64,000 nt of DNA from Candidatus Bilamarchaeaceae archaeon (GCA_038870635.1 JAVZJR010000003.1:4880-68879); one strand, 5' to 3'; positions 14,288 to 44,678 are shown, counted from the stretch's first letter. Program-made: numbers and translations. The notes: generated by a model from the letters alone, not told the origin.

Positions 14288-14689
14288 ATGTTAGGAATGG
14301 TTGGGATAAGGCTTCTTGACGGAAGTGTAAAGATAAAAGAAGACACGCCACCCAAAGGGCTTGCAATCGATTTAAAGATAACGAAGATAAGCAAAACTGA
14401 AAGGCCAGAGCTTGCGAATGTAAAGTTTTCTTATACAGTCTCATACACGCCAAATACAGCAGTGCTTAAGCTTGAGGGAGACGCGTTATTTACTGATGAA
14501 CCAGCTGTCCTAGAAAAAATAATAACATCTTGGAAAGAAAAGGAAAGAATAGATGAAGAAATAGCAGCGCGAATACTTAATTTCATAAATCCGTTTGTAA
14601 CACACAATGCCTTACTTATGCTCCGCGCGTTTAACCTTCCGCCACATATATCCCCGCCTCCGATAATACCACAGAAAAAAAGCAAATAA
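14288..14689 (+). CDS. hypothetical protein (133 aa)
   Basis: SD GGTGA upstream; Pro-rich C-terminus 'LPPHISPPPIIP'; no confident family. Confidence 0.5.
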   Translation: MLGMVGIRLLDGSVKIKEDTPPKGLAIDLKITKISKTERPELANVKFSYTVSYTPNTAVLKLEGDALFTDEPAVLEKIITSWKEKERIDEEIAARILNFINPFVTHNALLMLRAFNLPPHISPPPIIPQKKSK

Positions 14690-14700
14690 AGTGATAATAG

Positions 14701-15423
14701 ATGGAACTAAAAAGTGTTTTTGCAGCATATGGTGAAAAACCACTACTTTTCTTATGGGGGTCATTGCTTTACGTTTTTTTCTCTCTTATAGTTTTACTTT
14801 CAACTATTGGCATTCTTCTTGTCTCATTCTTGCTGCTTTTCTTTTTTGGATACTTACCTAATTTTGATACACCTCTAAATCTAATACTATATGCCCTACC
14901 AACAACAATAGCATTGCTCTTTATGTTATACATGAACGGATGCATCACCGCAGCAACTATTTATGCTTACAAAAATGCCACGAATGGCACTGCAATCTCT
15001 CTAATAGATTTTTATCACTACGGTCTATCCCGCGGTCCGATGATGTTCTCTATAGGAGTACTAAGGGATTTCTTTATGTTTATCGTAATAGGAGTAGGGG
15101 CTGCGATTTATTATTATGGATTGCAGGGATTTGAGTATGGCACCCATATACTAGTAATTTATACTCTTATGGTTCTCTTCGTGTTCCATCTTATTACAAA
15201 ACCAGGAATAATTGCTTGTGGTCTTGGTGAACGTCCATTTGAAAGTTTTAAGAAAACCTATCTTGTTTTTGCAAAAAAACATATTTATTTTATAGTGTTT
15301 TTTACAATGTATGCCTTTGTTTGGCTAATGAATTTTATTCCAATTTTGCAGTTTATTTCTCTCTTTGTACTCTTCCCTCTTTCATATAGCGCATTGATAA
15401 AAATGGTTGAAGAGATAAGGTGA
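14701..15423 (+). CDS. hypothetical polytopic membrane protein
   Basis: 240 aa with about 6 hydrophobic helices; SD GTGAT upstream. Confidence 0.6.
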   Translation: MELKSVFAAYGEKPLLFLWGSLLYVFFSLIVLLSTIGILLVSFLLLFFFGYLPNFDTPLNLILYALPTTIALLFMLYMNGCITAATIYAYKNATNGTAISLIDFYHYGLSRGPMMFSIGVLRDFFMFIVIGVGAAIYYYGLQGFEYGTHILVIYTLMVLFVFHLITKPGIIACGLGERPFESFKKTYLVFAKKHIYFIVFFTMYAFVWLMNFIPILQFISLFVLFPLSYSALIKMVEEIR

Positions 15424-15428
15424 TTTTT

Positions 15429-15737
15429 ATGGATAGATTATACGAAATCGCTTTAGAAAAAAGGGCACAGTTAACTAAAATACTAGAAAACGAGCCTTAT
15501 GCTCCTGATAGTTTTGCCCGCGTGGGCTATCGTATTAGGGATGGTGCAACATTGGAAGAAGATAAAACTAAAATTTATTTATTCATATCATCTTCAGAAG
15601 AATTCGTAAAAAAAGCAGATGATAGATTAAAAGATGTTGCAGTCGTTGTCGAAGGTGAAAAGGCTTCACGCATAATTTCAAAAATAAAAGCAGAAGAAGA
15701 AGCCGCGGAGAGTGGGTTTGGCTCACTTTTCGGCTAA
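15429..15737 (+). CDS. small protein with a ribosomal stalk (aP1/P1-P2)-like C-terminal tail
   Basis: 102 aa ending 'KAEEEAAESGFGSLFG'; SD AAGGTGAT lies 5 nt before ATG 15429; the N-terminal part does not resemble canonical aP1. Confidence 0.55.
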   Translation: MDRLYEIALEKRAQLTKILENEPYAPDSFARVGYRIRDGATLEEDKTKIYLFISSSEEFVKKADDRLKDVAVVVEGEKASRIISKIKAEEEAAESGFGSLFG

Positions 15738-15815
15738 TTTGTTTTTTTTACTCTTTTTTATACTAACATACACATTTATAAATAGAATTATGTTTAATAA
15801 TTATTAGGGGTTGAG

Positions 15816-18800
15816 ATGAAATATAAGTTTAATTTATTAACTACGAAAGATTTAAATAAACTAAACAATACTAATTATAAGTCGAGATGTTTCTCGATAA
15901 AGTATCCGCGGCTCTCAAAAGCAATTGCTGCTGGATTAGGTTTATGGTTAATGTTAGAGGGTGTTATTATGCCTATAGGCGGTGGTGTTTATGGAAAATT
16001 TGGAAAAGAGGTTTATGCGCAAACTCCAAAGAAAGTTGACCCATACGACGAATTAATTGAATCGTTGAACCAAATAATAAAGGAAAATGAAAAAATAAGT
16101 AAAGAATTGAAAGAAGGGACGGCGATACCACTTTACTTAAACAGTAAAAATGGGAAAAATATATTAACTAGATTAGAAAAAGCCGGTTTTGAAGTAAAAG
16201 ACGGTAAAGTATTATACAAAGGAAAAGAAGTATATACATTATCTAAGGACAAGAAAGGACGCTATTATATAGGGGATATTAATGAGTTTACAAATGAAAT
16301 TGTAGTCATATATAATAAAGAACAAGCAAACATGGCAATTGAAAACATAGAAAAAGAAGAAAAAAATAAGCCTACTGCTGTAGCTGTAACTCCTGTTAAA
16401 GAAAAATCACAAATAGAAAAATCACAAATACGTGAAAAAACGGCAGAAGAGAAAGAAAGTATAAATAAAATAAACAAGTATTGGAGCACCGTTTTAGGCA
16501 ATTGGGTTGCATACTACTACCAGACAACTAATAGAATAAAAGAAGAAATAAAAAAAGAAATAGGATATTTAAAAGCGCAGAAAAGTGAAAAAAAACTTAG
16601 TAAAAAAGAAATAGAAGAACTCAATAATAAAATAAATAAACTTGAAGAGAAACTTACAAAAATCGATGATGATTACATAAAATTGAAGAAAGAAATTGAA
16701 CAAAAAAAGAAAGAAGGATATTATACTGAAGAAGACATAAACAAACTAGCAAACATTCTATTAAAAGATTCTCCTCAATTAGAAGAATTTAATAAGTTGG
16801 CTTACCCTGAAAAACTCTCATTCCTAGAACAACATCTCTTTTATGTGTTACATCTTCAAAGTGAAGCAATTAATTCCTACTTAAAACAAGTAGACACACC
16901 TACAAAAGATCTTTTATATGTTTTAGATATTATAAATAAACAAGAACTAGAAGGTTATTCATTAAACAATATTTTAGGAATACGTCTGCTTTTAGCTGCA
17001 ATTAATGATAGAGATCTAGAGAGAAATATATCCAATGCCAAAGAGTACTACGACCAACATAAAGATAAAGGAGAAAAGTACAGAAATATAGCTGAAATAG
17101 AAAAAACCCGATTAGAAGGAATAAAAGGACTTATAAAAGAAAATGAACTCTACAACAAAGCATTAGAGATTACAAAAAACACTTTCGGTGAAAATAGCGA
17201 ATTTTATAAAAATGCGAACAGTAAGTTGGTTGGCGATAAAAAAATAATAGCATACACACTCTTGTCAATTTGTGAATTAAAGAATCTCAATGATTTGAAA
17301 AAAAATACACAAGGATTTCGCTTGGAATTGGCAATTGAACATTTCAACAAGCTCTTTATACCAAGCATGAAAAGCGAGCAGATAAAGAGATTTGAAATGG
17401 CGGGGTATGATATGAAAGAAGATCCTTTATTATTTAATCCTTATGCTGCTCTAGTAATAGCAAATGTTGGTATAGCGCAAATAATGGGAGGATCAAGATA
17501 TATTGATTTAGTAGCTTACTTAAATCGCCATGACCAAATACAAGATGTGCATGCAGTGATAACTTACATATTGGAGAAAGGAGGCATTGCGTACCCATTC
17601 ATATATCAAAATCCTATACTTACAAATGACGATGTGGGTGTTACATTTCTTACAAAAATAATAGATGAGAATAATGAAAAGTTTAATAAATATGTTGGGG
17701 GAATAGACCAATCTTTTTACCCAAATCTCATAACAGATAATAAGAATAGGCAACACAATCCTTACATAGGGTCACCCATCGAAATTATTGAAAGCTACTC
17801 ACCAAATTATATAAAAAGGAAAATATTTCCCCAATTTTTAACCCATCGAAATAATGATAGATATGAAGTAGAGTACAAGAGGTTCAATAATAGACAAAAC
17901 TACCCTGATGAAAGAAAAAAAGAAGACATACTATCACTACTAACACCTACTGAACAACTTTTAGCATTTGAAGCACCGCAGTCAATATTAGCTCCTCCAC
18001 CCACAAAAATACCACCGTCAACAACAGCAAGATTCGAAAGATTATATGTACTCCCAACGCAATTTGAAATGAAAATTGGCGAAAGTGGATTTTATTATAA
18101 TGGTGTACCGTCTCCGAGCGCAATACAAAAAGTTGGGGAAGAAGGCGCAGAGGCGTTAATTAGGGCATTGGTATATGGTTTAAATGTAAAAGAGACGGGC
18201 GATGTTAAAAATGCCGCAGATAATATAATAAATGAACTTAACAAATGGCAACCAAAAAGTGATGAGGAAAAAAAAATTAAGGATGATATAATAACACAAC
18301 TTCAAAACGCAAAAACGCCGGAAGAATTAAGAGCAGCCATAATCAAACTCCAACAAAAAGAACTCGGCATAGATTTTTTAAGTTCTATTTGCTCTTATCA
18401 GTGGGAGGGAAATACACTCCGTATAAGAAATTTGTATGGATTTGAAGTCAACATTAATATGAATGTAACTAAGGAAGAGATAAAAAAAGAATTAGGTGAA
18501 AAATATATAAATTTAATAAGTATTCCAGCAGGATTAGCAGGAAGGATTGGTTTAGCCTATTCACAAATAGCCGGTACTTTAATTGAAGAAAAACTTATTG
18601 ATTTTAATGAAAAGAACGAACCTGTTTTTGAACCGACTGGCAAAACAAAAAGAGCGATTATGAGTGAATGGGAGGTATATTTAAATGGTATATATAATTT
18701 CTTAGCATTCAAAGCGCCAGCTGTCTTGGGTGGGGTTGGATTGGTTCAAGTAAATGTAGATATTAATCTTGACAAACAATCGTTAGAAAGAACAATATCT

Positions 18801-19280
18801 GATAATAAGTTTGATTTTGATAACTGGTTATTCTCTAGTAATATAAGTGTTTCTATTGATTTTCCATTTGGTGAAGGTTTCTTCATAAGAAGATTAGAAT
18901 TAGGTTATCTCAATCCAATATTTATAACACAAGAAGGAAAAATGCAACTAACAGAGAATCCATTCGGAAGCATAACATTCGGATATAAAGAAAAGTTAGG
19001 AAATATACCTCTTGAAATTTATGTTACTCCAACCTATCTAATTAATACAAAGGAACTTATACTATCTTCCCTCATACGAGCACTAATTCCTGTTGGTAAA
19101 AACTGGGGGATTATACCCACTTTGGGATCGAGCTATGATTTTAGAGATGGTCGTCTAAATGCTAATTTTGAACTACCTTTACAATGGGGGATATTTAAGT
19201 TGGGACCGTCGGTAGGAATAGAATATAAAGGCGAAAACATTAATTTCAATATATTAATAAAAGGTGAGGTTAATTTTTAG
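15816..19280 (+). CDS. giant ORFan envelope protein (1154 aa): N-terminal anchor, coiled coil, beta-rich C-terminus
   Basis: Long uninterrupted ORF; hydrophobic 'AIAAGLGLWLMLEGVIMPIGGGV'; K/E-rich heptad-like region; Pro-rich linker 'APPPTKIPPS'; amphipathic beta-strand pattern to the final Phe. Confidence 0.8.
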   Translation: MKYKFNLLTTKDLNKLNNTNYKSRCFSIKYPRLSKAIAAGLGLWLMLEGVIMPIGGGVYGKFGKEVYAQTPKKVDPYDELIESLNQIIKENEKISKELKEGTAIPLYLNSKNGKNILTRLEKAGFEVKDGKVLYKGKEVYTLSKDKKGRYYIGDINEFTNEIVVIYNKEQANMAIENIEKEEKNKPTAVAVTPVKEKSQIEKSQIREKTAEEKESINKINKYWSTVLGNWVAYYYQTTNRIKEEIKKEIGYLKAQKSEKKLSKKEIEELNNKINKLEEKLTKIDDDYIKLKKEIEQKKKEGYYTEEDINKLANILLKDSPQLEEFNKLAYPEKLSFLEQHLFYVLHLQSEAINSYLKQVDTPTKDLLYVLDIINKQELEGYSLNNILGIRLLLAAINDRDLERNISNAKEYYDQHKDKGEKYRNIAEIEKTRLEGIKGLIKENELYNKALEITKNTFGENSEFYKNANSKLVGDKKIIAYTLLSICELKNLNDLKKNTQGFRLELAIEHFNKLFIPSMKSEQIKRFEMAGYDMKEDPLLFNPYAALVIANVGIAQIMGGSRYIDLVAYLNRHDQIQDVHAVITYILEKGGIAYPFIYQNPILTNDDVGVTFLTKIIDENNEKFNKYVGGIDQSFYPNLITDNKNRQHNPYIGSPIEIIESYSPNYIKRKIFPQFLTHRNNDRYEVEYKRFNNRQNYPDERKKEDILSLLTPTEQLLAFEAPQSILAPPPTKIPPSTTARFERLYVLPTQFEMKIGESGFYYNGVPSPSAIQKVGEEGAEALIRALVYGLNVKETGDVKNAADNIINELNKWQPKSDEEKKIKDDIITQLQNAKTPEELRAAIIKLQQKELGIDFLSSICSYQWEGNTLRIRNLYGFEVNINMNVTKEEIKKELGEKYINLISIPAGLAGRIGLAYSQIAGTLIEEKLIDFNEKNEPVFEPTGKTKRAIMSEWEVYLNGIYNFLAFKAPAVLGGVGLVQVNVDINLDKQSLERTISDNKFDFDNWLFSSNISVSIDFPFGEGFFIRRLELGYLNPIFITQEGKMQLTENPFGSITFGYKEKLGNIPLEIYVTPTYLINTKELILSSLIRALIPVGKNWGIIPTLGSSYDFRDGRLNANFELPLQWGIFKLGPSVGIEYKGENINFNILIKGEVNF
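16401..16430 (+). repeat. perfect 2 x 15-nt in-frame tandem duplication (EKSQI EKSQI)
   Basis: 'gaaaaatcacaaata' occurs twice back to back. Confidence 0.9.
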
Positions 19281-19290
19281 GTGAGCACGG

Positions 19291-20757
19291 ATGTTTGATG
19301 AAAAAGTTGAAAATGCATTATGGGTTGTTGATGTAGCAAAAGGGAAGAAGAAACCAGCAACGCTTGAAGAGTGGTTAAAAGTTGTGATATATTCCACTAA
19401 AATACTGCGTTTGTACGACATAAGCGGAAAACTAAATGGCTGGGCGAGATATGTTTTTGATAAGACAAACGCAACATTGGAAAATAAGGCAAAAATACTC
19501 TTGCGTACTATACGAAAAGAAGCACTTTCACAGATACTTTCCCATTCACCTGAAGAAATAAAAGCAATTAGAAACTCTCTTAAAGAAGAGTACATTTCAA
19601 CAAGGGTCATAGACTTTGAACCAGAGATAAGAGAAAACTTTTACACACTACTAAATATTTTCTTAAGCGATACTTCATTAAAATACTACAAACTTGCTCT
19701 TGCAAATCCTGCGCCGGTAAATGTACTTATAAATGATATAGGATATATGTTAATAATAATAGACAATTATTACCTTCCTATAGAAACAATAAATGAATTT
19801 GAAAACGAAAATGACGCATATGCTTTCTTCGCAAACTTTTTGATGCTCATCCTTTATGCAAAAGAGAAAAAAATATTTGAAGCAGATGTATTAATAAATG
19901 ACAAAATAGCATCAAAATATGTAAAAGAATGTTATAGAATATTTTCAAAAAGCATAAAAGATGAGAAAAAATCAGGAATAGCAGAACTAATACGCTCTGG
20001 GAATATTTGGGATGCTGTTGGAGAATTGCAAACTTATGAATCCTTCTATTCAGCATTTAAACAAATGCATAACATAAATCTTGTTTCATTTGCGTACGGA
20101 GAGATAAAAATAACTTCTTTTGTAGCGGAAATAACACTGTCAGTTGATAAGTACGGACTTGAAAAAATGGCAGATATATTTGAGAAAAATAAAAATTCAA
20201 CAAAAGGGTACTTTACTGGAATTTTCTACTTAAACGCTGCGATACAAGATTATTTAATAGATAGAAGAGTTTACCTCTCAAGAGAACTCGACCCAATCCT
20301 CCCAGACGGAGTAGGTTGGGCACTTCCCCTAAAAATAAAATTTGAGTGCACGGCAGATTGGAAAACCATCGTACCATTAAACAAACCTGCTTATCTTTTT
20401 GGTATAAAAAATGCGTATATTGAAACCATGGATAATAAATTTATTTCAGTAAGAAAAGCACCAGAAGATTTTGAAATAGACCCAGTAAATGGTAGCATAG
20501 CAAAAATAGAAGTTTACTCGACAGAAGAAGAGAATGACTTATTTAAAGGGAATATTATGTTCATACCAGAATTTTTAGGATTGCTATCCAACCTTATGTT
20601 AAAAGGAAGAATAGATGAAAGCATAGTTAACACCCTAAATCTAAACCCAGCGTATAGGAAATTTAATTTTATATCAGAAAAAGGTAAAATTGGAATTGAC
20701 GGGCATTTCACAGGATATATAACTGCAGAAACAAAAACAGGAGGTTTGAAAAAATGA
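19291..20757 (+). CDS. ORFan protein (488 aa), no signal peptide
   Basis: SD AGGTGA upstream; 10-nt gap from the upstream gene and an ATGA overlap with the downstream gene; no family recognised. Confidence 0.75.
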   Translation: MFDEKVENALWVVDVAKGKKKPATLEEWLKVVIYSTKILRLYDISGKLNGWARYVFDKTNATLENKAKILLRTIRKEALSQILSHSPEEIKAIRNSLKEEYISTRVIDFEPEIRENFYTLLNIFLSDTSLKYYKLALANPAPVNVLINDIGYMLIIIDNYYLPIETINEFENENDAYAFFANFLMLILYAKEKKIFEADVLINDKIASKYVKECYRIFSKSIKDEKKSGIAELIRSGNIWDAVGELQTYESFYSAFKQMHNINLVSFAYGEIKITSFVAEITLSVDKYGLEKMADIFEKNKNSTKGYFTGIFYLNAAIQDYLIDRRVYLSRELDPILPDGVGWALPLKIKFECTADWKTIVPLNKPAYLFGIKNAYIETMDNKFISVRKAPEDFEIDPVNGSIAKIEVYSTEEENDLFKGNIMFIPEFLGLLSNLMLKGRIDESIVNTLNLNPAYRKFNFISEKGKIGIDGHFTGYITAETKTGGLKK

Positions 20758-23123
20758 AAAAAATAATATTTTTGTTTTTTTTGTTAACAGTATTTTTTGC
20801 TACTGAAAACTCTATTAGAATTCATTACCACAGCCAATATGAAACATCAGATGTTATTACAAATCAGAAATTTGTCGCAGATTTAAAAGAATGCACAATA
20901 ACTGGAAAGGTTATAGAAGGTGATCCATGCAAAGCAGGCATTTCAAAAGTATGTAAAAACACCGTTATTACATATACGCCTCGGATTGTTGGGTTGTGGG
21001 GAGATAACAACAACTATATTACAACAACTTTGCCAAATTGTTTTTGCAAAGCACCAGCGGGCTCTGGTCTTCCAGATAGACCATCATACTGTGATCCAAA
21101 CACAAAAACATGTTCATGTACTGTGGAGGGGTATACTCTTTATTGTCCTGAGAATTACTTAGTTGATTACAACACTGATAATAGAGTACTAATTGCTTGG
21201 TTACCAGAAAGCATTTATAATAAATATGATGTAGAGCATCATGGTTATGCTGAGCAAACAATTTGGTCAGGTTATGCAGCTGGAAAACAAATACTCCAAC
21301 TTTATAAAGAACTTGGACCAAATAATTATCACGCACAAACAATAGATAGATACGATGCAACTTTCACTACATATTATAACAAAAAAGGATATGCAGCAGT
21401 ATTTTGCAAAGGAAAGTATGAAATGAAAGAAGGAAATAATATAATAAGAAGCGGAGAGATGCCAATCCAAGAAGGTCTACCCCAAAGAATTTTGATTTTA
21501 AACAATGTTGGGACAACAGCGACATTTAGTTCAAAACTTTATGGTCTTGATTGTTTTGCTTCTGTTATAAGGCATCCAAAAGATGATGACTACCTTTATG
21601 GTTTTGAAATACAATTTAATGGTTATAAAGTACCACCAATTTCTAATGTAGAAGACATTCACCAAATTGAAGTTGTCGATATAAAATCATCTATGGAGAT
21701 TATAAGCACAGAAGTAATAGCAAAAGATGGAAGCGGCAATTATTTACTTAAAACAATTGTAAAAAACACAGGTGATGTAAGAATAAAGATAAATGAAACA
21801 AAAGCAGATTATTTACCAAATTCAGGAGCAACACCAATGGATAGACAACTATGTAATTTAATCTTCGGACCAAATCCACCAGCAGAATGCAATTATCCAA
21901 ATGGATATAATTCATATTTTAATCCTGGTGAAGAAAAAACGCTTTATACATTATACCTTTATCAAGGAGAATCCAAAGAACTCTGCGATGTTTCAATTAT
22001 GAGATTAAGTTATACATCCGACCAACCAACTTGCTCGCAATATGATAAATGGTGGGCAGCGGTTAATGGACCGTGTATAACCGAACCTATAAAATATCCG
22101 CCAAAATGCGAGGTAAAACCAAAAGAGAATACCATTAATCCTCTTGAGATTCACGAATGGACGGTTAGTTGTTTTGATGAGAATAATAAAGCAGTAGCGT
22201 GTGTAGGTAATAATTGGAGATGGGAAGGAATAAAAGGTGATTTCGTAACAAAAACAAATGAAAAAGCATTAGCGTATTCAACTGCAACTAGTAAAGTAAG
22301 TGGTAAAATAGTTTATAGACAAGGTGAAATAAATTGCAGTGCAAATGTAACAGTTGATCCGCGCTCTCTTCCACAATTTGTTTGTATGCTTGAGCCATCA
22401 TCTGCAGAAATGGTTGTTAATGAAACTAAAAATTTTGACTTAAAATGTATATTTAGAGACGAAAGCGGCTCTTCAAAAGAAACAAAGCCTCAAAAAGCAG
22501 ATTATGCAGCAGTCGAAGGGCTCATAGGAAAAGTCGAGCCATATCCACGCGATCCAACAAGTGGTGTAACCTTTAATGCAACTGACGTAAGCGCAGGAAA
22601 ACTTAGAGGAATAGGTTATTACACAACACCTTTGGACCCAACATTAAGAGGAGCGATTGCCTTTTCATCAATAAATGTTGGTGCTGGTGAATTACAATGC
22701 GGTGAAAACGAGACGCTGGTTTGCCACCTTGAAGAGATAGAACTTCCATTCGGAGGCAGTACATTTATAGTTATATGCGAATGTGTGCCAAAAGAAGATA
22801 ACGAGGAAGAAGACAAGTCAAATATGGAGTGCGTTATAAGCCCACCAAATCAAAGGATATCACCATTACAACCTGGATTAGCAACTGTGAGTTGCTATGA
22901 TAAGCAAACTTGGAGCAGGGTAGAATGTGGCAGCGATATAACCTGGTCAATAAATGAGAACCTAGCGACATTCAAAGATAATACTTATGGAAAAACAAAT
23001 GTTGTATTCAATGCAAAACCAGGCGCTACTGGCGAGGGGTTCTTAAACGCCAAAGTAGGCGATAATGTAAGATGCGAGGCCAAATTCCTCGTTTCTCCAT
23101 ACACATGCTTAGAAATCAGCTAA
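20754..23123 (+). CDS. secreted Cys-rich ORFan (789 aa) with a CARDB-like segment and three Cys-framed Ig-like modules
   Basis: Signal-like N-terminus 'MKKIIFLFFLLTVFFA'; SD AGGAGGT; 'TIVKNTGDVRIKI' CARDB-like segment; three repeated modules of about 90 aa at aa 451-781. Confidence 0.8.
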   Translation: MKKIIFLFFLLTVFFATENSIRIHYHSQYETSDVITNQKFVADLKECTITGKVIEGDPCKAGISKVCKNTVITYTPRIVGLWGDNNNYITTTLPNCFCKAPAGSGLPDRPSYCDPNTKTCSCTVEGYTLYCPENYLVDYNTDNRVLIAWLPESIYNKYDVEHHGYAEQTIWSGYAAGKQILQLYKELGPNNYHAQTIDRYDATFTTYYNKKGYAAVFCKGKYEMKEGNNIIRSGEMPIQEGLPQRILILNNVGTTATFSSKLYGLDCFASVIRHPKDDDYLYGFEIQFNGYKVPPISNVEDIHQIEVVDIKSSMEIISTEVIAKDGSGNYLLKTIVKNTGDVRIKINETKADYLPNSGATPMDRQLCNLIFGPNPPAECNYPNGYNSYFNPGEEKTLYTLYLYQGESKELCDVSIMRLSYTSDQPTCSQYDKWWAAVNGPCITEPIKYPPKCEVKPKENTINPLEIHEWTVSCFDENNKAVACVGNNWRWEGIKGDFVTKTNEKALAYSTATSKVSGKIVYRQGEINCSANVTVDPRSLPQFVCMLEPSSAEMVVNETKNFDLKCIFRDESGSSKETKPQKADYAAVEGLIGKVEPYPRDPTSGVTFNATDVSAGKLRGIGYYTTPLDPTLRGAIAFSSINVGAGELQCGENETLVCHLEEIELPFGGSTFIVICECVPKEDNEEEDKSNMECVISPPNQRISPLQPGLATVSCYDKQTWSRVECGSDITWSINENLATFKDNTYGKTNVVFNAKPGATGEGFLNAKVGDNVRCEAKFLVSPYTCLEIS

Positions 23124-23161: not shown

Positions 23162-23345
23162 GAGCGTAAGCCTTTGCCCTTGTAATACAGAAGTCAAAGG
23201 CTTCGTAAGAAGCCAAGAAAACAGGAGAAAACATAAAACGGCTGCGGTGGCCGATGAAAACATAAGTCCACCGCACATAGAAAACAGAAAGTATAACAGA
23301 GAAAACAGTAAGAAGCCAAGAAAACAGTAAGAATACCTAAAAACG
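23162..23345. repeat. conserved GC-stemmed noncoding element, copy 1 (candidate ncRNA)
   Basis: Near-identical to 44352-44580 apart from one indel; stems 23168-76/23195-203 and 23243-50/23268-75; six GAAAACA heptamers. Confidence 0.8.
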
Positions 23346-30101: not shown

Positions 30102-30722
30102 ATGAGTTTTATACTAAAAAGAAAGGGAAAAAATAAAGACCGCACAGAAGATGTATTTTCTAAAAAAGAAGTTATCGACGAAAAGTTAAGAAAAATTCAG
30201 ATAACTTATCTTACAGAAAAATTCGCAATGTATAGGAATAATATAGAATCTGCTAAAATGGATTTAGAAGAATACGAAAAACTAAAAGACAATTCTCTTA
30301 AAGACTTAACGCAACAACTAAAGGATGCGATAAAAGAATGGGAAAAAAGATTAAATGAAACAAAAGAAAAATTAGCTTCGATAGTTGAAAGTGAAAGTGA
30401 AATAGATAAGATAATTGAAAAAACAAAACAAAAAATAAAAACGCGCAATTTTATAGAAAACGCTAAAAAAATAATAAAAGCAAGCGTGTTCACGTTCATA
30501 ACAACACTCGTGATTGTAAATCTTATAGGAGTTCCCATTAATGAAGCTATAAAAAATCCTATGTTATTTTATCCAACTTTTATTGTGGCATCTTTGTTAA
30601 GTGCGTTCTATATAATAAGTCCAAAAAGAAAAGAATTTTTGCAAGCGATAAATGAAAAAGTCAAAAAAGATGAATTAGACATAAAAGAAAGAGTGCAAAA
30701 AAATGCCGCGGGTCGGATTTGA
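30102..30722 (+). CDS. hypothetical coiled-coil protein with C-terminal TM helices
   Basis: K/E-rich heptads followed by 'VFTFITTLVIVNLIGV' and 'FYPTFIVASLLSAFYII'; the last 19 nt overlap tRNA-Phe on the opposite strand. Confidence 0.55.
   Translation: MSFILKRKGKNKDRTEDVFSKKEVIDEKLRKIQITYLTEKFAMYRNNIESAKMDLEEYEKLKDNSLKDLTQQLKDAIKEWEKRLNETKEKLASIVESESEIDKIIEKTKQKIKTRNFIENAKKIIKASVFTFITTLVIVNLIGVPINEAIKNPMLFYPTFIVASLLSAFYIISPKRKEFLQAINEKVKKDELDIKERVQKNAAGRI
30697..30703 (-). terminator. T7 run immediately after tRNA-Phe
   Basis: A7 on the plus strand is T7 on the minus strand, directly after the discriminator base; no encoded CCA. Confidence 0.5.
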
Positions 30723-30790
30723 ACCAACGACCCTTCGGTATCTGCGGAAATCGCTTCAGCCGAATGCTCTCCCAACTGAGCTACCGCGGC
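30704..30790 (-). tRNA. tRNA-Phe(GAA) with a 14-nt intron at the canonical 37/38 position
   Basis: Minus-strand read GCCGCGG-TA-GCTC..GAGC-A-TTCGG-CTGAAG[intron]A-CCGAA-GGGTC-GTTGG-TTCAAAT-CCGAC-CCGCGGC-A; all four arms fold. Confidence 0.9.
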
Positions 30791-30881: not shown

Positions 30882-31120
30882 GGTGAGGGGAGAACAGCTT
30901 ACCGGTTTTCACCGGAGGAAGTTCTGTCCACGGGAGGCTGATGCTCTTAAGGAGCGGAAAATGTAATAGAAACGATACCCTACGGGGATGAAACGGACAT
31001 TTTCCAGCCTTTGACCGTGCAAGGCCATTTGGCCGCTTTTCAGGCTAAAACCTGAAACCCGATAGATTCGGTGTAGTATAATGCTGTTTAAAACAGAAGA
31101 CAGGCTACTTCCCTCACCAT
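30882..31120 (+). ncRNA. rnpB: RNase P RNA (compact archaeal form)
   Basis: GC-rich island. P1 closes GGTGAGGG.../...CCCTCACC. CR-I-like 'GGAGGAAGTTCTGTCC' and CR-V-like 'ACAGAAGACAGGCTAC', with the long-range P4 pairing TTCTGT/ACAGAA; 'GATAGAT' CR-IV-like. Confidence 0.75.
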
Positions 31121-34124: not shown

Positions 34125-35828
34125 ATGGCAAGGCAGACTGAGCTAAAAAGCAACGAAATCCTCCAACAAGTGCCCCAAAAAAATATTACGGCAAGAATTT
34201 TAGACACACATAAAAAACATAATCAAATGATAAAAAAAATAGAACAAAGGCTCGACTATTTAAAAGAAAAATATGGTATAAAAGAAGAATTGGGATTATA
34301 CTTATTGGGTTTTTTAGCAGGCGCAATGGATGGTAAAAACTATCTAAAAATTGTGCCTTTAATCTTTTCAAATGGAAAAGCAATGCAAGTCTCTGAAATT
34401 TTAAAAGATAAAAACATAGTATTTGCCATAGATGACTTAAAAAAATTAGTAAAAAACAAAGAAGAGATTTACAATTTTTACAATGAACTAGAAAAACTAG
34501 ATTCAAAAGATTTAAGCAAAGAAAAATTGTGGGAGGCGTATATAAAATCATACGAAAGGAAGTATATACTAGAATATGTTAGTGGATTATGGGAAAAAAG
34601 TTACACAGAAGGAAAGTACGAAATCATTCCAGAAGAAAAGAAAAAAATACCTGAATTAAGAGAAGAACTTATAGAATTGCCGCCAACAACAACTGACCTC
34701 TATATTTATGGCTCTAGACCGATATATTTTGACAGTCAGACGGGTATAAGCGGGACAAAAGAACAGATTAAATTAGTTCGAGAAGCAGAAATTAAAAAAG
34801 AGATAGTGGGCAATGACGAAATGCTTCTCTATCTTCTTCCGTTGATAGGAACGGGTTATGCTCTTGTAAAAGATTTAAGAATAATAAAAGAAGGAAGCGA
34901 ACAAGAGCTAATTAAAATAGGTAAATTAAGAATCTCAGAAAAAGATATAGGCAAAGGAATGCTTGTGCTTGACCTGTTGTTTGGATGGTGGGACGCAAGT
35001 TTCGTTATCCATTTAGGAGCAAAAAGCGCTGTTAAAACAGCAGCACGGGAAATTGAAAATGTAACAAAAAGTGGGAGGGCGATTGCGGTAAGTGAAATAA
35101 ACAAAAAAGTCTTATTAAAAGCAGCAGAAGAATTGGACAATAACGAAATGAAAAAGTTCATAGAGATATTAGGACGAAACCCAAAGTTAGGAGAGGAAAT
35201 AGTAGCTAAAGCAGGAGGTGTAAACAACATAACAAAGGAAATACTTAAGGAATATATCAACAAAGAAAAAACAAAAATTAGCACAGTAAAAGAAACAGCA
35301 CTTTTACTTTCTGAAAGAAAATTTAGAGAGTATGCACCTCTCGTCCTTTTCAAGGAAATGGCAGAAAGAACAGAATTAGAATCATTAAGATATCTTGGAC
35401 AAATGGCAAAAGGTTTAGATGAAAGAGAAAGAAAAATTGTGCTTAAGGCAATATTCGCTACACTAACAACATTTGACAAAAACGCTCAGAAATCCCTTGC
35501 GAATTACGTAAAGAAAAATGGTTGGAAAGGAATAATAGAAAAAATAGAAATGAAAAAAGATGTCGTAAGGGCACTACAGGAATTGTTTCCAGAATATAAA
35601 GATGCTTATAAATATGCACCTTTGGAGGACATAGTAAAAACAGCGCGAGACCTAGGCGCATTGCACGCGGTATTTGTGTTTGTGCAGTTAATTGGCAGTT
35701 ATATAAGCACAAAAGAAGAAGAAAAGCTAAACGAGATTGAATTTATGCAAGGATTAAAGGAACTATCGTATAAAGAAAAGAACAAGGGGTTATTAGATTT
35801 ATTTATGAAAAGTTATGAAAATAAATAA
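34125..35828 (+). CDS. ORFan protein (567 aa), first gene of giant-ORFan operon 2
   Basis: Long ORF; TATA-like 'tttttaaatg' about 25 nt upstream of the ATG, so possibly leaderless; hydrophobic segments 'LLYLLPLIGTGYALV' and 'MLVLDLLFGWWDASFVI'. Confidence 0.75.
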   Translation: MARQTELKSNEILQQVPQKNITARILDTHKKHNQMIKKIEQRLDYLKEKYGIKEELGLYLLGFLAGAMDGKNYLKIVPLIFSNGKAMQVSEILKDKNIVFAIDDLKKLVKNKEEIYNFYNELEKLDSKDLSKEKLWEAYIKSYERKYILEYVSGLWEKSYTEGKYEIIPEEKKKIPELREELIELPPTTTDLYIYGSRPIYFDSQTGISGTKEQIKLVREAEIKKEIVGNDEMLLYLLPLIGTGYALVKDLRIIKEGSEQELIKIGKLRISEKDIGKGMLVLDLLFGWWDASFVIHLGAKSAVKTAAREIENVTKSGRAIAVSEINKKVLLKAAEELDNNEMKKFIEILGRNPKLGEEIVAKAGGVNNITKEILKEYINKEKTKISTVKETALLLSERKFREYAPLVLFKEMAERTELESLRYLGQMAKGLDERERKIVLKAIFATLTTFDKNAQKSLANYVKKNGWKGIIEKIEMKKDVVRALQELFPEYKDAYKYAPLEDIVKTARDLGALHAVFVFVQLIGSYISTKEEEKLNEIEFMQGLKELSYKEKNKGLLDLFMKSYENK

Positions 35829-35878
35829 AAAATGTTTATAACAGAGATATGTTGGTGATGTTTATGGTTGGTGGTACT

Positions 35879-38395
35879 ATGGTACAAGAAACGTCTGAAA
35901 AAAATCCTCAAGAAAAGAGTGGAATGGACCGTATTAAAAAAGGAGTGCAAAAAATTTTACCACAAAAAAAAGGAAAGAGTATGCCTCATCATCTTGGTGC
36001 TCTGATGGAGGAAAACGATTATATTAAAAGAGCTTTAAAAAAATTTGAGGATACATATAAAAAATTGCCGCAAACAGAAGCAAAAGAATTACTAAACAAA
36101 ATTTACGAAGAATACAAAGAAGCTCTTGAAAGAAACGACAAAGAACAGATAACAATTCTCTATGACATTTTGCAAAAACTTCAAGCAAAAAGAGACGACG
36201 TAAATGTAATAAAGATGAGCCCTATTTTAAAAACAAAAGCAATGAAACAAGAATTAAATGCTGATGATGTGATAAGAATAATAAGCATCGATTTAAAAAA
36301 TAACGAAAATAAATTAATGAGTTGGTTAAAAAATCTAAAGTTAGATATGGCAGAACAAGCTGCACTTTTAGTTGAACTAGAAAAAAGAGGACTAATAAAA
36401 AGAGATATTATTTTCCAAACGTTTGAGCGGTTAAGCGGAACAGTAGATGAAGAGATAATCAATAGAATAATAAATGGGCAAACAGCAGTAGATGCTATCG
36501 CAAATAGTATACCATCACACCTCAGAGAAACATATAAAAAATATCAAAGCAATACTTTATCTGAAACTATAAAAAATATAGATAACAGGATAGATGAAAT
36601 AAAAGATCAAATTAAAAGAAAGCTTTATGTAGACCAAGCTTTAGATGACGAACTAAAAACTTTAAATGAATTAAAAAATGAAGTGAAAAAGTTTATTGAA
36701 GGGGGAACCGAGGCTCTTGAGATTTTAGGGAAAAGAATAAGCACTATAGCAGAAGAAGAATTAAGAATAAGCCAAGAGCTAGCTTACCTAAACCGACCGT
36801 TTTCATTTAACCTAGGTATATTTAAAAAACCAATTATTTTTGGTTTGTGGGCAGGCGGGCTTTATGGTATTTATGAATTAGCAGAAACACCGTGGGCTTC
36901 AGTAACAGCATTTATTTTCGGAATAGGAACGTACTCAACATACAAAAAAGCCAAAGAAGTTGAAGGCCTACGGGCTAGAATAAGAAGAACAGGACCAATA
37001 GCGATTTTATGGGCAACTCTTACTGGAGTTTCTGGTTACTTAACTTACGAAGCTCTGCAAAAAAAAGAGAATGAATTACAAAACGAACTTATGAAAGAAT
37101 ACAAGCTTTCAAGAGAAGAAATAAAAAGATTGGGTGATTTCGCAAAATCAAAAGAAGGAAAAGCAGTGATTAATTATCTAAAAGATTTAAGAGGTAAAAT
37201 GGTGCGAGAAGGAGAGAGATTAGATTTCAACAAATTAGAAGAATGGCTCAAAGACGAAAAAACTATTGGTTCATTCAAAAATCTTGAATATTTCATTAAA
37301 GCCCTGCTTGAAATTGCTCCTCTTGTGAAAAATAAAAATGAAGATGAGATAAAAAGAATAATAAATCAAAAAATAGATGAATTTAAACAAAAAGGTTATC
37401 TCTACAATAAAGGAGAAAGTGTGCTTTTTGAATATGGGTTAGCGATTGGCTTATCTGAACAACAAATAGAAAAATTACTATCTTCTGCTGAAAATAAAAA
37501 AGAAATTGTTGAACTTTTAAAAGCAGTTTATGAAGGTAGATTACCGCAAAGCTATGCAATGATATATGCTGAGTTTATACTGCAAGGCAAAAAAGAAGAA
37601 GCAGAAAAACTTCTCCTTCAACAACCAATACAAAAAAACTCAGCACTCGATCACTTGGACAGGTACACATTGGATATATTGATGGATCCTAATAAAGACA
37701 TAAAAGAAAAACAAAATGCAAAAAGGAGATTAGACGAAATAATTAAGTGGTATAATACAAACGAGACGTACAGAAACAATTTAAACCAATCTCTGGGTGA
37801 AAACGTAATTTATGGTGATGATAAATATGGATGCATAAGTGCTATTATGAGAGGTGACATAACTATAGAACAAATTGCTAATGGTGAAAAATTAGAAGTA
37901 GGATATATAATAGCGAACCCTTTATTAGCAATGATTGACAAGAGATTCATAAGCGATGCGCGAGCAGCAAATTTTGTTAACGAATATGGTTTGCTAGAAT
38001 TTATTAAAGGCTATATAAAAGAGAATAAAATCGGCATTGATGCCTATGGCTTAGTAAAAGAATTAGAAAATGATAAAACCTTTAGAGCTATAGATAAAAA
38101 TAAAAGAAAAGAGTGGTTAAAGGAAAATCTTGAAAAAGGATTGCTAAAGAAATATCTAAAAACTAAAAATTTGGAAAGAACATATATGGCAAACGGAATA
38201 GAAACTGCTCCCCCTACCATAATAGAAAAAAAAGAGGGGAAAAGGGCACCTCCAAGCAAAAGAGCACCTCCAAGCAATACTCCTTCACAAGTAATACCAA
38301 GGAAAACAGAAAGGCCGCAACAACCATCAGGGCGTAAAAAAGTAGGAAAAGAGGAAGAAGGAGGGGGAAAAAAAGAAGAGGAGATAAGTTGGTAA
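35879..38395 (+). CDS. ORFan membrane protein (about 838 aa) with three central TM helices and a basic Pro-rich tail
   Basis: SD GGTGG before ATG 35879 (the track starts at 35849); TM block 'PIIFGLWAGGLYGIY..WASVTAFIFGIG..GPIAILWATLTGVSGYL'; tail 'KRAPPSKRAPPSNTPSQ'. Confidence 0.75.
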   Translation: MVQETSEKNPQEKSGMDRIKKGVQKILPQKKGKSMPHHLGALMEENDYIKRALKKFEDTYKKLPQTEAKELLNKIYEEYKEALERNDKEQITILYDILQKLQAKRDDVNVIKMSPILKTKAMKQELNADDVIRIISIDLKNNENKLMSWLKNLKLDMAEQAALLVELEKRGLIKRDIIFQTFERLSGTVDEEIINRIINGQTAVDAIANSIPSHLRETYKKYQSNTLSETIKNIDNRIDEIKDQIKRKLYVDQALDDELKTLNELKNEVKKFIEGGTEALEILGKRISTIAEEELRISQELAYLNRPFSFNLGIFKKPIIFGLWAGGLYGIYELAETPWASVTAFIFGIGTYSTYKKAKEVEGLRARIRRTGPIAILWATLTGVSGYLTYEALQKKENELQNELMKEYKLSREEIKRLGDFAKSKEGKAVINYLKDLRGKMVREGERLDFNKLEEWLKDEKTIGSFKNLEYFIKALLEIAPLVKNKNEDEIKRIINQKIDEFKQKGYLYNKGESVLFEYGLAIGLSEQQIEKLLSSAENKKEIVELLKAVYEGRLPQSYAMIYAEFILQGKKEEAEKLLLQQPIQKNSALDHLDRYTLDILMDPNKDIKEKQNAKRRLDEIIKWYNTNETYRNNLNQSLGENVIYGDDKYGCISAIMRGDITIEQIANGEKLEVGYIIANPLLAMIDKRFISDARAANFVNEYGLLEFIKGYIKENKIGIDAYGLVKELENDKTFRAIDKNKRKEWLKENLEKGLLKKYLKTKNLERTYMANGIETAPPTIIEKKEGKRAPPSKRAPPSNTPSQVIPRKTERPQQPSGRKKVGKEEEGGGKKEEEISW
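38240..38275 (+). repeat. 2 x 18-nt in-frame tandem duplication (KRAPPS KRAPPS), one mismatch
   Basis: 'aaaagggcacctccaagc' followed by 'aaaagagcacctccaagc'. Confidence 0.9.
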
Positions 38396-38416
38396 AATAA
38401 TGAGGTGAGATGTTAA

Positions 38417-39007
38417 ATGGTTGTAGCAAAAGTTGCACCAAAAGAAAAAAAAGAAGAGACAGTAGACGAAATAATAGATAATTTTATAAAAATAGAAAGA
38501 GGAAAAGATGTAATTAGTTATTTCATTGGAAAAGAGGAAAAAATAAAATCCAATAAAGAAAAATTTATAGATAAATTGTACAACCGATTAGAAAAATATA
38601 TGCTTTCGGATGAAAAGAAAAGAGAAATCGTAAAAAAGAACAAAAAACAGATTATTCAAACTCTTAACAAGGATAAGTATTATACCAAATTGAAAGACTA
38701 TTTTCCAACCGAAGACGATGCTTTTGATTTTTATGTAGATAATGTTAAAAATATAGATGCGCTTTACAATAAAATAAAACTTAAGATTGACACTAAAGAA
38801 AAATTAGAAAGAATAAAGGAATTTTTAACTAATGAAGCACAAAAAGACGAACGAATAAAATCTGAATTAAGCGATTATGTCAAAATAAATTTTGAAAAGG
38901 CACGATACTCTGTTTTTGGGGCGATGCTTTATTTGCGAGCTAAAGAAAACCCAAAAAGTGAGCCGTGTGAAGAATCATTAATAAAAAAAGATGAGTTTAC
39001 ATTTTAG
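38417..39007 (+). CDS. ORFan protein (196 aa), Lys-rich
   Basis: SD GAGGTGA 8 nt upstream; 21-nt gap from the upstream gene. Confidence 0.65.
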   Translation: MVVAKVAPKEKKEETVDEIIDNFIKIERGKDVISYFIGKEEKIKSNKEKFIDKLYNRLEKYMLSDEKKREIVKKNKKQIIQTLNKDKYYTKLKDYFPTEDDAFDFYVDNVKNIDALYNKIKLKIDTKEKLERIKEFLTNEAQKDERIKSELSDYVKINFEKARYSVFGAMLYLRAKENPKSEPCEESLIKKDEFTF

Positions 39008-39068
39008 GATTGAAACCAAAAAACACCATCCAACAGGATTTTAAAATAGTTACTATAAATTATAAATT

Positions 39069-44351: not shown

Positions 44352-44580
44352 GAGCGTAAGCCTTTGCCATCGATAGCTATGCTATCGAGCTGTAAACGTA
44401 TAGACGTTTACACAAGGAGATGATAGAAGTCAAAGGCTTCGTAAGAAGCAAAGAAAATAGGAGAAAACATAAAACGGCTGCGGTGGCCGATGAAAACATA
44501 AGTCCACCGCACATAGAAAACATTAGAAATACAGAGAAAACAGTAAGAAGCAATGAAAACAGTAAGAATAACTAAAAACG
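44352..44580. repeat. conserved GC-stemmed noncoding element, copy 2 (with a net ~46-nt two-hairpin expansion)
   Basis: Aligns with 23162-23345; extra perfect hairpins CGATAGC/GCTATCG (44371-87) and GTAAACG/CGTTTAC (44392-411) lie inside the stem-A loop; abuts the tRNA-Arg 3' end. Confidence 0.8.
44574..44578 (-). terminator. T5 run after tRNA-Arg
   Basis: A5 on the plus strand directly after the discriminator base; it lies inside repeat copy 2. Confidence 0.4.
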
Positions 44581-44678
44581 GGCCTGGCAGGATTTGAACC
44601 CACAACCGCCTGGTCACTCCTACAATCAGGAGAGTGCATCCGAAGCCAGGCGCTCTATCCAAGTTGAGCTACAGGCCC
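44579..44678 (-). tRNA. tRNA-Arg(UCG) with a 25-nt intron at position 37/38
   Basis: Minus-strand read GGGCCTG-TA-GCTC..GAGC-G-CCTGG-CTTCGG[intron]A-CCAGG-CGGTT-GTGGG-TTCAAAT-CCTGC-CAGGCCC-G; the T-stem needs two G-U pairs. Confidence 0.8.

Follow-up and report, generated by a model that had tools for sequence, protein, structure and literature searches.

The DNA analyzed here is a 64,000-nucleotide (nt) stretch, hereafter the window, from a Candidatus Bilamarchaeaceae archaeon (GCA_038870635.1 JAVZJR010000003.1:4880-68879), and its subject is a block of three genes, A, B and C, at positions 15816-23123, which an earlier reading made from the sequence alone (the sequence-only reading) had described as an operon of giant ORFan envelope proteins. 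The results support these three as true ORFans belonging to a single unit. With a probability of roughly 0.55, the trio represents a vertically inherited, lineage-specific module of a Micrarchaeota subclade, in which A and C would make up a variable exported surface complex and B would be their cytoplasmic partner. This reading draws on the structure of the genes, the conservation of their order, export signals identified by inspection, the lack of any known family and a contrast in evolutionary rates between strains. Identical deposited proteins are annotated as hypothetical, and the metagenome-assembled genome (MAG) itself carries the name 'Candidatus Bilamarchaeaceae archaeon'. The Bilamarchaeaceae are placed in the Anstonellales, within the Micrarchaeota and DPANN, and the paper that named the family regards the Anstonellales as comparatively self-sustaining and possibly free-living (PMC8561730).

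The genes and the signals that accompany them are arranged as follows, SD standing for Shine-Dalgarno and ORF for open reading frame:
15775-15784 (+): TATA-like box TTTATAAATA, a candidate archaeal promoter about 32 nt 5' of the start codon of A, from sequence reading
15806-15815 (+): SD-like AGGGGTTGAG preceding the ATG of A, before which AGGGGT is seen, from sequence reading
15816-19280 (+): gene A, ORF of 1154 amino acids (aa)
19276-19281 (+): SD-like AGGTGA, 9 nt 5' of the ATG of B and overlapping the stop codon of A
19291-20757 (+): gene B, ORF of 488 aa
20741-20746 (+): SD-like GGAGGT within the 3' end of B, 5' of the ATG of C
20754-20757 (+): ATGA stop/start overlap of B and C
20754-23123 (+): gene C, ORF of 789 aa
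23125-23140 (+): T-run TCTTTTTTAATTTTTT, a candidate archaeal terminator that starts two bases past the stop of C

The placement of the three SD-led, co-directional ORFs, the 10-nt intergenic gap between A and B and the ATGA overlap are as the sequence-only reading had given them. Archaeal transcription terminates at oligo-T, which is the basis for reading the T-run as a terminator. Taken together, the SD motifs, the 10-nt gap, the ATGA overlap, the TATA-like box and the T-run make A, B and C look like one archaeal transcription unit. The G+C content of the trio lies 3-5 points below that of its flanks.

Word-indexed searches of 5.8 billion proteins returned four relatives of A (P0001-P0004), two of C and seven of B, an exhaustive HMMER search of 1.84 billion representative proteins with a B profile yielded eight clusters, and a single locus, from a Micrarchaeota MAG, came out of a pattern-limited scan for B that covered 185,579 species-representative genomes. 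All named family members are Micrarchaeota or Bilamarchaeaceae. Gene order was assessed at every locus with enough flanking DNA, and ten distinct loci were recovered, given here with the sizes of the A-type, B and C-type proteins:
window itself/L015 (sister strain): in L015, 1142/488/789 aa
L001: A-type 1195 aa; B and C read as one 1261-aa gene, an artefact
L002-4: 1541/489/711 aa
L005-7: 1161/488/786-787 aa
L008: 1203/489/768 aa
L011: A-type partial, B 491 aa, C-type 721 aa
L014: 1495/497/716 aa
L017: 1461/515/815 aa
L018: A-type at least 636 aa, B 481 aa, C-type 978 aa
L019: A-type at least 1336 aa, B 526 aa, C-type at least 332 aa

The order A-type, B, C-type is found in 10/10 of these loci, over a range of B identities from 99% down to ~19-20%; the trio and its order, whose presence in related genomes the sequence-only reading had singled out for checking, are thus kept in every related locus recovered. 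The 4-nt overlap of B and C is kept in 9/10 distinct loci, L019 having a 4-nt gap at this position and the junction being unreadable in L001 (scaffold gap). In the latter, an apparent 1261-aa fusion of B and C (L001 13603-17388) was considered as evidence for a shared compartment and discarded: a run of N (XXXX) lies at the junction, and the signal peptide of C is intact behind it. This pseudo-fusion is a caution for the automated inference of domain fusions. The ORFs are intact in every locus. The module occurs in two housekeeping neighbourhoods, FtsZ...GlnA and TFIIE/NUDIX...beta-CASP/FeS-assembly/ACT, and since these are different and each internally syntenic, they argue for a module that is vertically inherited and moves as a unit. 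In the rank of conservation B comes first (41-56%, down to ~20%), followed by C (27-45%) and A (28% or undetectable), while all C-type genes are homologous, with hhalign probabilities of 99.9-100%.

As the sequence-only reading had stated, no known enzymatic or structural family was recognised in the three proteins. Pfam and NCBIfam (E <= 1) were empty for A, B and C, PADLOC gave no match for any of them, and PHROGs yielded nothing significant, the best E values (0.026 and 0.032) both falling on the K/E-rich helical part of A. Member-wise Pfam searches at E <= 10, which covered seven C orthologs, seven A modules and ten B orthologs, brought up no recurring family, profiles of B, C and the C-terminal module of A found nothing real among 177,635 PDB sequences, and the matches in remote-homology searches of A, B and C were limited to generic helical or low-complexity ones. 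Remote homology to surface-layer (S-layer) proteins or known adhesins, the outcome that the sequence-only reading had set against its own proposal, was searched for and not found: the S-layer models PF05123 (S_layer_N), TIGR01564 and TIGR01567 gave no match at E <= 1 in A, B or C, S-layer domains were absent at E <= 10 from the seven A-module and seven C orthologs, and the family searches of the trio detected no adhesin, lectin or pore-forming domains.

In protein A, the following segments can be distinguished:
15816-16019 (+): residues 1-68, extended N-terminus resembling a signal peptide or signal anchor, from hydrophobicity and an alignment of seven orthologs
16413-16805 (+): residues ~200-330, K/E-rich helical stretch, from composition (25 K+E in residues 251-300)
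17616-18095 (+): residues 601-760, fast-evolving segment that includes the Pro-rich linker at ~720-745, from the strain comparison given below
18135-19226 (+): residues 774-1137, the sole family-wide conserved module of A, from hhalign

The hydropathy scan found a single hydrophobic segment in A (residues 36-55), in agreement with the N-terminal hydrophobic region proposed earlier. It carries G-V-x-M and lies in an N-terminus that also has a KDLN motif and a small-x-small site (VYA/QT, the slash marking the site). This layout recurs among the orthologs as a conserved extension of 35-55 residues, K[DR]LN, the short hydrophobic G-V-x-M segment and then a small-x-small site (VYA/Q, VSA/A, VAA/A); the distant ortholog of L017 has a short classical signal peptide only. 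Judged from its residues, the N-terminus of A could be either a cleaved signal peptide or a type II anchor. Composition also bore out the K/E-rich stretch, peaking at ~200-330, and the Pro-rich linker at about residues 701-750 (8 Pro/50 residues). The 'long coiled coil' and the 'beta-rich C-terminus' of the sequence-only reading were not confirmed, composition and a low-confidence model being their basis: the AlphaFold model of the C-terminal module has a predicted local distance difference test score (pLDDT) of 45.6 and is not usable. A-type proteins form two groups beyond BLAST linkage, which hhalign joins through one module (A 774-1137 versus L002_A 1112-1494, probability 96.5%, E 7e-10) that is also present in L017, L018 and L019 (probabilities of 91, 78 and 77%). 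As to an outer-membrane-type transmembrane beta-barrel, a closed fold that would end in a conserved aromatic beta-signal, the terminal residue of A is F in the window, W in L005 and L014 and R in L001 and L008, and L002 and L017 have long charged tails beyond the module.

Protein C is divided as follows:
20754-20813 (+): residues 1-20, Sec-type signal peptide (MKK, hydrophobic core, A/S at -1), from the (-3,-1) rule applied by eye
20826-21353 (+): residues ~25-200, strain-variable Cys-rich N-terminal region, from sliding counts and alignment
22098-22367 (+): residues 449-538, beta-module repeat 1, from hhalign against 690-784 (probability 94.6%, E 7e-8)
22371-22688 (+): residues 540-645, weakly related module, from hhalign against 690-789 (probability 34.5%)
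22821-23105 (+): residues 690-784, beta-module repeat 2, from hhalign
23106-23120 (+): residues 785-789, CLEIS, the conserved extreme C-terminus, from ortholog comparison

The signal peptide and the many Cys ascribed to C were both found, in the form of a hydrophobic stretch near the N-terminus (residues 3-23) and a total of 31 Cys, of which ~20 are invariant, and a Sec-type signal peptide is seen in all C orthologs. Together, the ~20 invariant Cys and the repeated modules of ~90 aa are typical of extracellular proteins. The 'three Ig-like modules' of the sequence-only reading survive in part: 449-538 is homologous to 690-784, with a weaker relationship for 540-645, and the C modules, which may or may not be Ig-like/Big domains, gave no match to an Ig family, to Pfam or to PDB sequences. 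Its 'CARDB-like segment' was not recovered, as CARDB (PF07705) gave no match at E <= 10 in any of the seven C orthologs. A lineage-specific insertion is present at about residues 96-131, and the terminal motif C-[LIP]-[EQ]-[ILVY]-[ST] occurs in the variants CLEIS, CPEVS, CLEYT, CIEYS and CLQLS.

In protein B, the hydropathy scan showed no signal peptide, in line with the earlier claim, and no hydrophobic segment. The collective label of 'envelope proteins' is unfit for B, which carries no export signal, unlike A and C with their N-terminal hydrophobic signals and small-x-small sites in all orthologs. An AlphaFold model of B built from an 8-sequence alignment (mean pLDDT 75.6, predicted template modelling score (pTM) 0.60) suggests an alpha-helical N-terminal half and an alpha/beta C-terminal half. 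The comparison of models with Foldseek, recommended by the sequence-only reading, was carried by B, given the unusable model of the A module; it returned no neighbour in PDB (best E 0.066, template modelling (TM) score ~0.1) or in BFVD (best E 0.067, TM ~0.1). Lipovitellin and Vps13, which appeared as candidate fold relatives, were not used, their probabilities being only 0.03-0.08. The strongest motifs of B, DFEPExR (108-114) and YLSRxLxPxxP (328-338), fall in lower-confidence segments of the model, the latter at a pLDDT below 50, which is compatible with a possible function as partner-binding segments.

Evolutionary rates were obtained from a codon-by-codon comparison of the window with the syntenic locus L015 of the sister strain GCA_038886115.1, a single strain pair. 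Identities are those of aa, changes are given as non-synonymous : synonymous, and pN/pS is the ratio of their normalised proportions:
six housekeeping genes (reference): 99-100% identity, 7 : 34, pN/pS 0.06
A, whole: 88.5% identity, 163 : 43, pN/pS 0.96, Fisher p = 5.5e-14 versus housekeeping
A, residues 1-100: 100% identity between strains
A, residues 601-760: 28 : 2, pN/pS 2.85, binomial p = 0.038 versus neutrality, Fisher p = 4.8e-11 versus housekeeping
A, residues 761-1154: about 115 : 29, pN/pS 1.05, synonymous divergence 5.9x background (p = 2.7e-10)
B: 98.6% identity, 7 : 7, pN/pS 0.26
C: 95.4% identity, 39 : 19, pN/pS 0.55, p = 6.9e-7, most changes within residues 1-200

B and the neighbouring genes are under purifying selection. 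Within A, windows of 100 codons that start at residues 761-915 share 67-77% identity between the strains, and the synonymous excess in residues 761-1154 points to imported or long-maintained divergent alleles, beyond new mutations alone. The family-wide conserved module of A is thus also its most variable part between strains, a pattern typical of exposed recognition surfaces. In C, 9-17 aa differences per 100 residues accumulate in residues ~25-200, and 0-4 elsewhere. The strong diversification that A and the N-terminal region of C show between strains, next to a B and neighbours under purifying selection, lends new support to surface exposure. P0003 was considered as an independent third allele of A and set aside, since over the region that they share it and P0002 carry one and the same allele.

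In the module as we envisage it, A would be exported through its unusual, extended, signal-peptide-like N-terminus and would present a long, mainly helical body, the Pro-rich linker and the family-wide C-terminal module. C would be secreted through Sec as a disulfide-rich chain of beta modules whose N-terminal region varies. In both proteins, the exposed parts (A ~600-1154, C ~25-200) would diversify by aa replacement as well as by the import or retention of divergent alleles, as might be expected if a surface used in recognition or adhesion were also targeted by viruses or partner cells. B would remain in the cytoplasm, translationally coupled to C, as the conserved core of the module, and would most likely be a partner dedicated to assembling, exporting or anchoring A and/or C. 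Within this frame of a surface complex, contact with a host or partner would be a plausible, hypothetical role.

Several points weigh against this proposal. The extracellular complex, physical interactions between A and C and of B with A or C, and the role in adhesion or recognition are what we infer, and the signal peptides of A and C were judged by eye and hydropathy only. The rate contrast comes from one strain pair, and a MAG assembly can be a mosaic of strains. Relaxed constraint would likewise yield a pN/pS near 1, the value seen over most of A, and only A 601-760 exceeds a value of 1, at p = 0.038. N-glycosylation sequons are not enriched in either exported protein (4 observed versus 8.3 expected in A, 6 versus 7.3 in C). 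A membrane or wall anchor was not found for C, and the same holds for A if its signal is cleaved. Finally, a host-contact role is weakened because the lineage is possibly free-living (PMC8561730).

In architecture, the trio comes closest to S-layer operons and to fibrillar adhesins whose tips vary. Among the latter, which have dedicated export signals, streptococcal M proteins have hypervariable distal tips, and serine-rich-repeat adhesins have extended signal peptides and cytoplasmic Asp chaperones. By analogy only, the trio may be likened to them in the long helical body, the conserved proximal and variable distal parts, the long signal region and the co-encoded cytoplasmic protein that lacks an enzymatic signature; these adhesins, however, are bacterial, LPXTG wall-anchored and repeat-rich, they show no sequence or structural similarity to the trio, and homologs of SecA2/Y2 are not adjacent to the trio. 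The SlaA/SlaB operon of Sulfolobales encodes an exported subunit of very large size together with a smaller one that forms the stalk. Both have been modelled (PMC11329633), and like A and C they are two large exported proteins in an operon. Unlike SlaB with its C-terminal transmembrane anchor, A and C have hydrophobic 19-mers at the N-terminus only (36-55 and 3-23, respectively), and the Sla system has neither a cytoplasmic third partner nor homology to the trio. In Micrarchaeota, SLP_Mh (Micr_00292; PF05123/TIGR01564) is a protein of ~100 kDa whose N-terminus may be a signal peptide or an anchor and for which no membrane anchor has been identified, and few sulfur residues, an acidic isoelectric point and heavy glycosylation are listed as traits of the S-layer in this phylum (bioRxiv 10.1101/2021.04.28.441871). 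An S-layer protein would also be expected to be highly abundant and to build a 2-D lattice. Here, the same phylum, the large exported protein and the ambiguous N-terminus are shared, whereas A, B and C lack S-layer domains, C is rich in Cys, the sequons are at or below expectation and the module belongs to a narrow subclade. Additionally, hypothetical external proteins of Nanoarchaeota carry an excess of non-synonymous single-nucleotide polymorphisms and were read as surfaces for host recognition or evasion (Jarett et al. 2018, PMC6142677). They resemble A and C as DPANN ORFans with a single N-terminal hydrophobic helix that evolve faster than the rest of the genome. Unlike them, the trio is a module of three genes in fixed arrangement that includes a conserved cytoplasmic partner and has persisted across deep divergence, its variation is confined to defined segments and includes excess synonymous divergence, and there is no sequence relation. 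What is distinctive in the trio is the fixed three-gene architecture, the cytoplasmic core without a detectable fold relative and the extended, conserved signal region of A.

The main ordinary rival to a variable surface complex is a non-canonical S-layer or S-layer-associated scaffold, in which A would span the pseudo-periplasm as a stalk and C would serve as the subunit of a canopy or lattice, the role being structural and use as a virus receptor driving the variability. Micrarchaeota possess S-layers and a pseudo-periplasm of 20-25 nm (bioRxiv 10.1101/2021.04.28.441871), the module lies in the core genome beside housekeeping genes, two large exported proteins share one operon, like SlaA/SlaB of Sulfolobales, and fast evolution is also seen in S-layer proteins. 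We nonetheless consider this scaffold unlikely, given that the Micrarchaeota S-layer protein is recognised by PF05123/TIGR01564, models to which the trio gives no match (E <= 1; orthologs E <= 10), and is almost without sulfur amino acids, as opposed to the 31 Cys of C, and that A has no SlaB-like C-terminal transmembrane anchor. Moreover, S-layer homologs are reported across Micrarchaeota genomes (bioRxiv 10.1101/2021.04.28.441871), unlike the narrow B family, which was found in 1/185,579 species-representative genomes (pattern-limited scan) and in 8 clusters worldwide. Another reading, a strict apparatus for host or partner-cell contact as the sequence-only reading had hypothesised, would have the conserved beta-rich C-terminal module of A bind to or insert into the partner envelope, with C as a co-adhesin, to exploit another archaeon. 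The confinement of the module to Micrarchaeota agrees with it, its distal parts are hypervariable, as host-range determinants would be, and the A module behaves as a conserved fold of variable sequence, in keeping with receptor-binding proteins. What makes such an apparatus doubtful is that the Anstonellales were proposed to be comparatively self-sustaining (PMC8561730), that GlnA and OTCase are encoded in the window itself, that adhesin, lectin and pore-forming domains were not detected and that confidence in the model of the A module is low.

A third possibility, an unrecognised archaeal machine for cell-cell interaction, would be a long shot: here the family-wide, beta-rich, strain-hypervariable C-terminal module of A would be a head that binds to or inserts in the partner membrane, C would be a disulfide-stabilised co-receptor, B would be a new cytoplasmic export or anchoring factor that recognises the signal region of A (K[DR]LN...G-V-x-M), and an RNA-like element shared with a second operon (described below) would co-regulate two surface systems. 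It is scarcely credible that the block is instead an island that is degenerating or selfish, such as the remnant of a prophage, a defence system or the target of a diversity-generating retroelement (DGR), and an origin in mobile elements, viruses or defence systems is all but excluded. Although the lower GC of 3-5 points, the fast evolution of ORFan genes and a weak PHROG match of A to a tape-measure family (E 0.032) could be cited for it, the ORFs are intact at all loci (the B-C fusion of L001 being a scaffold-gap artefact), position and order are kept in syntenic housekeeping contexts across deep divergence, PHROG and PADLOC gave no significant match, no relative of B was present in 2.9 million viral contigs, and B is under purifying selection. 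DGR-type hypervariation in particular was rejected because no template/variable repeat (TR/VR) was found: in the 64-kb window, no direct repeat of at least 40 nt on A or C rose beyond the chance-level identity of ~71-74%. Among the window ORFs scanned, no reverse transcriptase was seen.

DPANN account for a large share of archaeal diversity, and since the genes concerned are ORFans, little is known of how their surfaces recognise partners, hosts or viruses. Against this background, an anonymous 7.3-kb block has become a defined, testable unit, with a trio in fixed order, a core protein without a detectable fold relative and variable segments mapped to residues. The trio supplies targets for antibodies, labelling in cryo-electron tomography, heterologous expression and population genomics in a lineage that has no cultured member, and B is usable as a marker gene for the module. 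Should the head of A prove to be receptor-binding or membrane-active, it would found a new family of archaeal interaction proteins.

The window holds a second ORFan block, operon 2 (34125-44294), which codes for very K/E-rich proteins of 567, 848, 196 and 1741 aa, the largest of which ends in a beta-looking region (...YIGGSF). Operon 2 has no Pfam or NCBIfam match, and its proteins of 848, 196 and 1741 aa have no hydrophobic segment at the threshold used. Operons 1 and 2 together take up 17,478/64,000 nt, or 27.3% of the window, close to the 27% estimated in the sequence-only reading. The tie between the two operons that was suggested there did not extend to the proteins, paralogy being rejected as neither BLAST nor hhalign matched operon 2 to A, B or C; a common downstream repeat is the sole link found, present in two copies:
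23162-23345 (+): repeat element copy 1, intergenic, after C
44352-44580 (+): repeat element copy 2, after the 1741-aa gene of operon 2, abutting a minus-strand tRNA

The element measures 185-229 nt and stands directly 3' of both ORFan operons, with a shared core that is 94-98% identical between the copies. Its 5' stem AAGCCTTTG/CAAAGGCTT is conserved, and the loop has a 46-nt insertion in copy 2; the sister strain carries this long form after operon 1 (L015, about 17310-17545). The plus strand folds better than shuffled sequences (z = -3.9, 0/200 as good), compared with z = -2.1 for the minus strand, and in the second hairpin one stem pair is changed on both sides between the strains, i.e., in a compensatory manner. 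Seven GAAAACA motifs were read in the sequence, and no Rfam family or viral contig matched the element, which may be a small RNA or a regulatory element common to both operons. The tRNA at 44579-44678 (-), whose 3' end abuts copy 2, is 100 nt long, scores 52.9 bits with Rfam and was missed by ARAGORN, presumably because an intron is present.

The housekeeping surroundings reported in the sequence-only reading were found as such, with OTCase, HisRS, FtsZ, GlnA, proteasome beta, aCPSF1 and LysRS among the neighbours, in addition to a thermosome recognised by eye from its ORF translation. The name 'Bilamarchaeum' was at one point taken as a hint of a double membrane and dropped; it derives from a freshwater turtle. 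Directly 5' of A, three small genes (14288-15737) code for proteins of 133, 240 (polytopic membrane) and 105 aa, the last two sharing a 4-nt overlap. With a conservation of 65-81%, they adjoin the trio throughout the subgroup of the window (L001, L005, L008, L015), have no Pfam family and are not near the trio in the distant subgroup; since they accompany it in the window's subgroup only, they were rejected as parts of the system. A second surface-structure locus lies at 52297-55309 (-), where a T2SSE-type ATPase and a T2SSF-type membrane protein form an assembly pair like those of type IV pili or archaella. Elsewhere in the window, an archaeal RNase P RNA (30882-31118, +; 87.4 bits) and a tRNA-Ser(TGA) (30704-30790, -) are arranged back to back as ordinary housekeeping RNAs.

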